From NCBI RefSeq assembly GCF_964188315.1, contig NC_135662.1, forward strand, positions 42,532,001-42,596,000: a stretch of 64,000 bases of DNA, given 5' to 3'. The stretch's first letter is position 1. Every line of letters begins with the position of its first letter. This DNA is from Podarcis muralis. Lineage: Eukaryota. The notes under the pieces are model-generated. The model saw nothing but the letters and a program-made list of their open reading frames with translations, was not told where the DNA came from and searched no databases. A program made the translations under genes and the position numbers. Shown one piece after another: positions 21,797 to 22,573 of the stretch.

Positions 21797-22573
21797 TGCC
21801 CCTTCCGATCGTCAGGAGGAGGGGGGGTTGTGGGATCACGACCCACCCACACTCGCTCTCGCGAGGCTGGTGTCAGCCTCGCGGGAGACAGGGATTCCCC
21901 CAATTAGCATACCCTGTGGCGCCAGCCAATCGGCTGGTGGCAGGGGCGGGCCTTCGTAGGGCCACTTAAGGTCAGGGCAGCCCTTGGCTCACCCCCTTTC
22001 TTCCCTGGAGACGACGCGGTTTCCCACCCACCCGCCCTTTAGGTTTTGCCACTGACCTTGCTATGGGCTTCGGCTGGTCGCCGCAAGGGGCCTGGTAGGA
22101 GTTTTTCCATTTGGCTAATTGGCTGGTTTTGTGAGCCACTTGGTTTTTTCGCCTACCTCGTAGCAAATCGTCACAACTCCCTCGGTTTTGGCGGTAGGCA
22201 TTGGCCGGGGTATTGTCATGCAGATGAGGTTGGGGGGGAGGAACGCCATCACCTCCCCCAATGCTTGAAGGGTAGTTCGTTAAAGGAGTCCGAGGGGCGA
22301 CGCCTCGTCCGAAACCTACGGAGGCTAGGGCCTAAAGCGCGCCCCCGAGCGGTAACCCCTCGGGGAGCGCCTAGGGATATGCATCTCGGGTGGCTCCCCC
22401 TGTTGGTGTTTAACCCTTCCCGGTCAGACCGCATAGTCGGTTAGGGCCAATGCCTAAAGCCAATACCCTTCTTTCCTGTAATCAATAAAGTTGTGGCCAT
22501 TTTCGCCCATTAACCTAAAACTCTGTGTCCGTTGTCTTCATTTATTCCACCTGTGGGGGGGAGGGAATAGCCA
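21797..22573 (+). mobile_element. Solo LTR-like element, family 1 copy B (best preserved)
   Basis: TGCCCC...TAGCCA, candidate 5-bp TSD CACAA (21792-21796, 22574-22578); CCAAT ~21925, GC box ~21942, CACTTAAG ~21964, AATAAA 22484-22489; CpG-rich; alignable with copy D. Confidence 0.8.

Follow-up and report, generated by a model that had tools for sequence, protein, structure and literature searches.

The stretch of DNA analyzed here (hereafter, the window) comprises 64,000 nt of the Podarcis muralis genome and contains six copies, A to F, of one repeat superfamily (Table 1). The sequence-only reading of the window had described these copies as an LTR-like family. Our analysis assigns them a different identity: the six copies represent solo A-X-B end-modules from a Ngaro-like tyrosine-recombinase retrotransposon. 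They correspond to the A2-X-B2 end of an element with split direct repeats and have no LTR identity. Copy B is preceded by CAA at 21794-21796 and itself ends in CAA, the same word that forms the internal B1|A2 junction of full elements. Remnants of an SGNH gene were found upstream of B in a relative of copy E (L134) and in a relative of copy C (L169). The window also holds two reverse-transcriptase-like frames on the minus strand, at 54869-56788 (639 aa) and 58408-59877 (489 aa), which, judging by their motifs, are probably of the non-LTR type.

Table 1. Repeat copies in the window and features of copy B (positions are those of the window)
Feature	Position	Strand	Remarks
Copy A, old solo	14135..14883	+	approximate ends
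Copy B, solo A-X-B, young	21797..22578	+	98-99% to three other solos
Copy C	33211..33520	+	only the 3' part of B recognizable
Copy D, solo A-X-B	35781..36519	+	
Copy E, old, X-B part	37040..37540	-	approximate ends
Copy F, solo A-X-B	52271..53075	-	
Copy B: A repeat, promoter-like	21797..22024	+	CCAAT and GC boxes; TATA-like TTAA at 21966-21969
Copy B: X spacer	22025..22188	+	between A2 and B2, single in full elements
Copy B: Pa	22058-22065 with 22159-22166 (span 22058..22166)	+	nearly invariant
Copy B: ENE-like arm	22094..22157	+	lower stem 22094-22099/22152-22157; U5 22102-22106 opposite U6 22144-22149; upper stem from 22107/22143
Copy B: Pb	22170-22178 with 22489-22497	+	invariant, without covariation
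Copy B: B repeat	22189..22578	+	
Copy B: Pc and extension	22184-22205 with 22446-22467	+	encloses branched interior
Copy B: conserved hairpin inside Pc	22274-22289	+	
Copy B: AATAAA	22484-22489	+	
Copy B: predicted cleavage CA	22508-22509	+	
Copy B: GT-rich stretch	22524-22538	+	

We searched the species' own genome (1.52 Gb) with copy B as the query and scored the best 40 of 4013 candidates. In 14 of these best 40, another copy of the final 390 nt lay directly 5'. When eight tandem-B loci were extended upstream, the first ~230 nt of the module was found repeated further 5' in 8/8, at a distance of about 7 kb in six and about 4 kb in two, with A1 and A2 97.5-100% identical over 226-243 nt in every case. 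All eight full elements thus carry the split direct repeats A1...B1-A2-B2, and their order is A1-gag-RT-YR-SGNH-B1-A2-X-B2, with X (~165 nt) present once per element, between A2 and B2. A profile search assigned the four ORFs between the repeats to a CCCH zinc-finger protein, a reverse transcriptase, a tyrosine recombinase (YR) and an SGNH/GDSL hydrolase. RVT_1 (E 5e-14) and Phage_integrase (E 2e-6) both scored over the cut-off, while Lipase_GDSL_2 (E 4e-4), matched by the ORF positioned after YR, fell under its curated cut-off, as did the CCCH match in the gag-position ORF. The same search of the four ORFs gave no DDE integrase, no methyltransferase at E 0.01-0.1, and no further family beyond the matches named. 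The nearest named recombinase homologues came from Podarcis, Zootoca and Lacerta, followed by gecko and other lizards, and no named Ngaro reference was among the homologues found. A metagenome scan for relatives yielded only 2 weak loci.

An LTR or endogenous retrovirus with a long R region was rejected on the split repeats and on the presence of a YR rather than an integrase. The ends also differ, being TG...CAA without a variable duplication, versus the TG...CA with a 4-6 bp duplication expected of an LTR. Among 16 solos, AA stood directly 5' in 15 and CAA, the word that ends B, in 9; no longer target-site duplication was seen by eye in these 16.

Searches with the SGNH ORF in two clades, each with 150 matches listed, allowed 190 3' ends to be retrieved. 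B1-A2-X-B2 was present in 88 of these 190 ORF4-anchored ends, and most of the remaining ends have a single B. Across the 88 elements, B1 equals B2 (median identity 99.9%), the 5' boundary of B lies 6-7 nt ahead of the Pc arm in 73, and none is permuted with A after B2 (0/88). Genome-wide, an X motif gave 2580 exact matches, and its reversed control gave 0.

Several further observations concern how these modules vary and spread. Close relatives of copy B differ far more in the A repeat (81-99% identity) than in X (93-100%) or B (94-99%), a rapid divergence that resembles promoter turnover. The best 40 of the 4013 modules consist of 24 solos, 14 full-element ends and 2 modules after a partial B, while ORF-bearing single-B elements at B identity of at least 94% numbered only 3, in a sample drawn differently from the best-40 modules. 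Because A1-A2 recombination alone is not expected to outrun B1-B2 recombination, the excess of solos over single-B elements, counted as it is in differently drawn samples, hints that solos were inserted directly. At one locus (L005:1158-2257), the start of A1 is fused straight to mid-B1 and is followed by an intact A-X-B. Among the SGNH-ORF matches listed, 54/150 of the first clade lie on C20, which makes up 2% of the genome and may be a non-recombining chromosome, and 1/150 of the second clade does.

Within copy B, the A repeat is a putative promoter, to judge from its boxes. Pa and the 5' arm of Pb are located in X, and Pc is located in B. Pa closes a junction of two small hairpins and an arm that resembles an ENE, and the X arm of Pb is complementary to the bases from the last A of AATAAA onward. 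In addition, 22054-22057 is complementary to 22076-22079 over a conserved 4 bp, a possible pseudoknot with Pa or competitor of the second hairpin; no co-change between these two segments was seen.

All seven arm pairs for which the sequence-only reading quoted coordinates are present in the sequence. Pa of D and Pc of A, B and E are perfect complements, Pa of B has 10 bp including two G-U pairs, Pa of F includes one G-U pair, and Pc of F has about 20 bp with one mismatch and a 2-nt bulge. The pattern had been claimed for all six copies and is found in five (A, B, D, E and F); it is missing from C, of which only the 3' part remains and in which the Pa arms, the Pb 5' arm and the true Pc 5' arm were not found allowing one mismatch. 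Copies A, B, D and F retain the Pb arms; the Pb 5' arm of E and the Pa 5' arm of A have decayed.

Selection keeps the fold on the plus strand while elements replicate, and inserted copies then lose it by neutral decay; this bears out the earlier proposal that the stretch from the TATA-like box to AATAAA is a selected structure. All covariation evidence comes from a single genome, with alignments thinned at 97% identity to 81 of 122 ORF4-end-plus-B1 sequences and 105 of 152 X-plus-B sequences, and a later alignment of 63 of 100 young X-B modules. RNAalifold recovered Pa, Pb, Pc and the branched interior. Counting pairs that are at least 80% Watson-Crick, changes from Watson-Crick to G-U and to A-C numbered 30 and 7 on internal branches versus 69 and 68 on terminal branches (Fisher p 7e-4), and another tally on the plus strand gave 26:4. 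Since G-U is favored over A-C on internal branches and the two are equal on terminal branches, these counts point to selection acting on the plus strand. When only pairs that are 90% Watson-Crick were kept, the G-U:A-C ratio was 5:3, with too few events, and the asymmetry was gone. Counted across the entire fold, changes on both sides that kept pairing numbered 25 and 20 on internal branches, compared with 2-8 for slid partners, and co-changes numbered 36 and 31 versus 23 and 13 expected, figures that are inflated because the helices of the interior come from predictions made on these very alignments.

Covariation had been claimed for the arms in general, and this part of the claim holds for some helices only. 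Pa and Pb are conserved complements: neither had a both-side change on internal branches among 24 young modules, and 0/8 Pa pairs had one among 59 distinct X sequences. They carry no covariation because their sequence is nearly invariant. Compensatory change is seen in the Pc end pair, in the stem inside Pa, and in the X upper stem, whose sequence differs among families A, B, C and E. A tree-aware test of covariation, of the kind that the sequence-only reading had proposed, was positive for one pair in one alignment. The Pc end pair (about 22205/22446), which is CG in 37, TA in 24, AT in 16 and GC in 2 of 81 sequences, exceeded every value in 40 tree-based nulls and was the sole pair to pass in the B1 alignment. 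Tree-aware G-test pair scans of the two X-B alignments, in which two deep clades dominate, gave no significant pair (best E 0.67 and 0.23). The 604-nt region 21975-22578 is not unusually stable, with a folding-energy z of -0.06 on the plus strand and 0.19 on the other strand, and the z values of X (-0.9) and of the ENE-like arm (-1.8) in copy B are uninformative.

The arm inside Pa was examined against the layout of known ENEs. An ENE is described as a stem-loop near the 3' end whose internal loop is rich in U and lies next to G-C pairs, and which binds the poly(A) tail (PMC7583470, PMC13541005). Folded alone, copy B forms a lower stem of 6 bp and an upper stem, between which U5 faces U6. RNAalifold applied to 63 X sequences alone found both of these stems without guidance, with Pa lost to another partner. 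Both-side changes were found in 3/7 lower-stem pairs among the 59 distinct X sequences, and 23/28 lower-stem changes keep or gain pairing versus about 39% on terminal branches (p = 4e-6). The unpaired U's, on both sides of the loop, are the least-changing positions: the seven U-loop columns had 1.0 changes per column, whereas paired columns had 1.84 and the remaining unpaired columns 3.55. A 2x2 loop (A-R / Y-G) lies between the U's and the lower stem and sets off from the U's the two G-C pairs near the loop, candidates for the A-minor contacts of an ENE, which are near-invariant (58 and 57 of 59). In some young families the U run counts only 3-4 residues or contains a G.

An ENE descriptor, written after the motif had already been seen, matched 47/105 X-B copies overall. 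By family, it matched 21/23 young copies, 3/3 of B, 18/28 of D and 4/27 of F, and among old families 1/7 of C, 0/9 of A and 0/8 of E (1/24 together). Controls gave 0/105 on the reverse strand, 0/105 in the B interior, 0/81 in the ORF4-end-plus-B1 sequences, and 7/1050 in shuffles. Folded separately, families A (9 copies) and E (8) showed the same topology with a different upper-stem sequence, and family C (7 copies) showed Pa and the upper stem only, its lower 3' strand being paired elsewhere; one copy in each of the C and E sets is a flank-derived member of another subfamily. Pooled folding of A, C and E lost the arm. The stem, U-rich internal loop and stem of an ENE are clear in the young families and decayed or shorter in A, C and E. 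Our preferred reading, to which we give a probability of roughly 0.5, is that the X loop is an ENE-type poly(A) clamp within the RNA 3'-end structure, where it would slow transcript decay.

The 3' end of the module has an ordinary poly(A) signal layout, namely AATAAA, a CA about 20 nt later and a GT-rich stretch, with the spacing kept in 88/88 young modules. The HTLV-1 Rex-response element is also a long-range fold near a retroelement poly(A) signal, and the region had been likened to it as an unusually long R region. The lizard module differs in that it is not an LTR and has no long gap between hexamer and predicted cleavage site; because this gap is only ~20 nt, no fold is needed to bridge it, and the analogy fails.

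In the clamp model, transcription would start in A, and the RNA would be cleaved about 20 nt past AATAAA in B2, where the poly(A) tail would be added. Pc and Pb would tuck away the 320-nt B loop and let the tail exit next to Pa, beside the U loop, with Pb anchoring the 3' flank of the hexamer in X at a distance of three bases from Pa. The loop would then clamp the tail through U.A-U triples and stabilize RNAs carrying X. Because the U loop lies about 335 nt upstream of AATAAA in sequence, the model depends on Pb, which shows no covariation. Because X occurs only before B2, the clamp would form only in RNAs crossing the B1|A2 junction or in short RNAs begun in A2 or in a solo, and it would favor replication-competent RNA over RNA ended at B1.

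Among indexed sequencing runs, no RNA run was listed as carrying the sequence. Four raw RNA runs contained 41-106 reads each, mostly partial matches to other subfamilies. In two of the four, ORF4 reads lay on one strand. RNA-seq had been suggested as a check of start and end sites, and the few reads of these runs showed no pile-up at an RNA start or 3' end. The reads of one subfamily run past the predicted CA, and these may come from single-B elements.

We also consider it possible, though less likely, that X-B serves as a packaging signal and origin of reverse transcription, a reading compatible with the ENE clamp. Gag or RT would bind the Pa junction and the U loop, and the fold would set the 3' end, possibly a captured tail, as primer; hepadnaviral epsilon places the primer for reverse transcription in a comparable way. 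B1 and B2 are near-identical in all families, which implies that B is recopied from one template in each cycle, and the 5' boundary of B falls at the end of the extended Pc helix. The invariance of Pa and Pb is of a kind often seen at protein-bound sites. However, paired U runs of 4-6 between G-C-closed stems are a specific ENE signature and would be superfluous for an origin. For DIRS-1, published work states that it is not known what primes reverse transcription (PMC7192593). A more far-reaching model, which we regard as unlikely, makes the X-B fold the replication origin of split-direct-repeat retrotransposons in general. The ENE-like loop would capture the element's own tail, and Pb and Pc would bring the 3' end to the X|B boundary, the place at which reverse transcription would begin. 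The short A-X-B RNA from A2 or solos would itself be copied, and the thousands of solos would partly be non-autonomous mini-elements rather than leftovers of recombination.

A long-range helix joins the final codons and stop codon of the SGNH ORF to the 30 nt preceding the B1 AATAAA and runs into that hexamer. A switch between poly(A) sites, in which the end of ORF4 pairs into the B1 hexamer and silences B1 while B2 stays open, also appears unlikely to us. The ORF4 end does form two extra helices of 12 and 13 bp, with 95-96% of cells paired in 81 sequences, which reach the first three bases of the B1 hexamer, and the opening cost of B1 exceeded the shuffled-upstream control in 19/24. However, B2 is predicted to be about as closed (mean 2.5 versus 2.3 kcal/mol for B1), and B1 had the higher value in only 11/24. 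In folds of the whole 3' end (n=14), the X arm partnered with B1 in 6, with B2 in 5, and with neither in 3. The outer helix is weaker or shifted in the second clade, and the arm is partly ORF4 coding sequence. As a matter of predicted accessibility, with the B1 and B2 hexamers about equally closed, the switch is unsupported.

The inverted arms could in principle reflect something other than RNA structure, either templated copying or a role in minus-strand cDNA or double-stranded DNA like that of the DIRS-1 internal complementary region. YR elements are described as rebuilding their ends through repeat annealing (PMC7192593, PMC6681497), Pa and Pb are invariant, and the folding energy of the whole region is ordinary. 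Copying, however, predicts perfect complements without strand bias, whereas the observed changes pass through plus-strand G-U (26:4; 30:7) and both sides of the loop keep their unpaired U's; we therefore consider this reading improbable. Plus-strand single-stranded DNA may be a site of the pairing.

A self-cleaving ribozyme of a new type in X or B that sets the RNA end is very improbable: the compact junction, the invariant unpaired bases and the UUCG- and GNRA-like loops of one clade are suggestive, but there is no Rfam match at gathering score or over chance, the tetraloops are replaced in the second clade, and the complete poly(A) signal layout is conserved. The sequence-only reading had named a ribozyme among the candidate functions, but the fold matched no known ribozyme in Rfam, and the IRES-like domain named there is without support, no conserved downstream ORF being seen in the module. 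That the same reading did not recognize the fold as a described element agrees with Rfam, which gave 0 matches in the window at the gathering threshold; a follow-up returned 7 matches at E 1.5-9.8, all far under threshold.

The closest architecture we found is that of DIRS-53_XT of Xenopus, a Ngaro element of the order DIRS with the arrangement A1-ORFs-B1-A2-B2 and gag-like, RT, YR and SGNH ORFs (PMC9210276). The lizard element shares its order of repeats and ORFs and the lack of a methyltransferase match, but differs in the conserved ~165-nt X between A2 and B2, which carries the fold; the portion of that report available to us contains no mention of RNA structure for DIRS-53_XT. Isolated A-B units are likewise described as solo AB repeats of Cafeteria Ngaro (PMC8547959) and as SIRE of Trypanosoma cruzi VIPER, which consists of A2, an exclusive internal region of ~30 bp, and B2 (PMC6681497). 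In contrast to these, the lizard X is five times longer and structured, and the units occur in thousands of copies.

ENEs are on record for transposable elements of plants, fungi and slime mould and for stickleback retroviruses (PMC7583470, PMC13541005), and deletion of the ENE in Arabidopsis Evade lowers both RNA stability and insertions (PMC12501189). As in the ENEs of KSHV PAN RNA, of transposable elements and of Evade, the lizard arm has a stem, a two-sided U-rich loop and a stem, with G-C pairs nearby, and as in the transposable-element ENEs, it lies upstream of a poly(A) signal, here a predicted one, in the RNA of a mobile element. It differs from ENEs in the 2x2 loop between the U's and the lower stem and in its position on a junction tied to the hexamer through Pb. 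It also differs from the transposable-element ENEs reviewed in having a lizard YR retrotransposon as carrier and in that its triplex function is predicted. The literature searched, parts of which were available to us, contains no description of an X-B fold in Ngaro or DIRS elements or of an ENE in DIRS, though the Tycowski 2012/2016 surveys may list a DIRS-type ENE, for example among their slime-mould entries. The Ngaro family itself may already be catalogued in Repbase or Dfam. Within that literature, the conserved ENE-resembling fold is new for Ngaro-type elements.

The X-B fold may bear on RNA protection, packaging and priming in the order DIRS, and it provides a defined 64-nt ENE candidate on a 450-nt scaffold, of which many families supply natural variants. 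Even without a function, LTR-like repeats are now correctly re-annotated as Ngaro solos. If the clamp reading is true, the little-noticed spacer between A2 and B2 would acquire a function, and tyrosine-recombinase retrotransposons, among them an amniote mobile element present in at least 2580 copies, would join the carriers of poly(A)-clamping triple helices.
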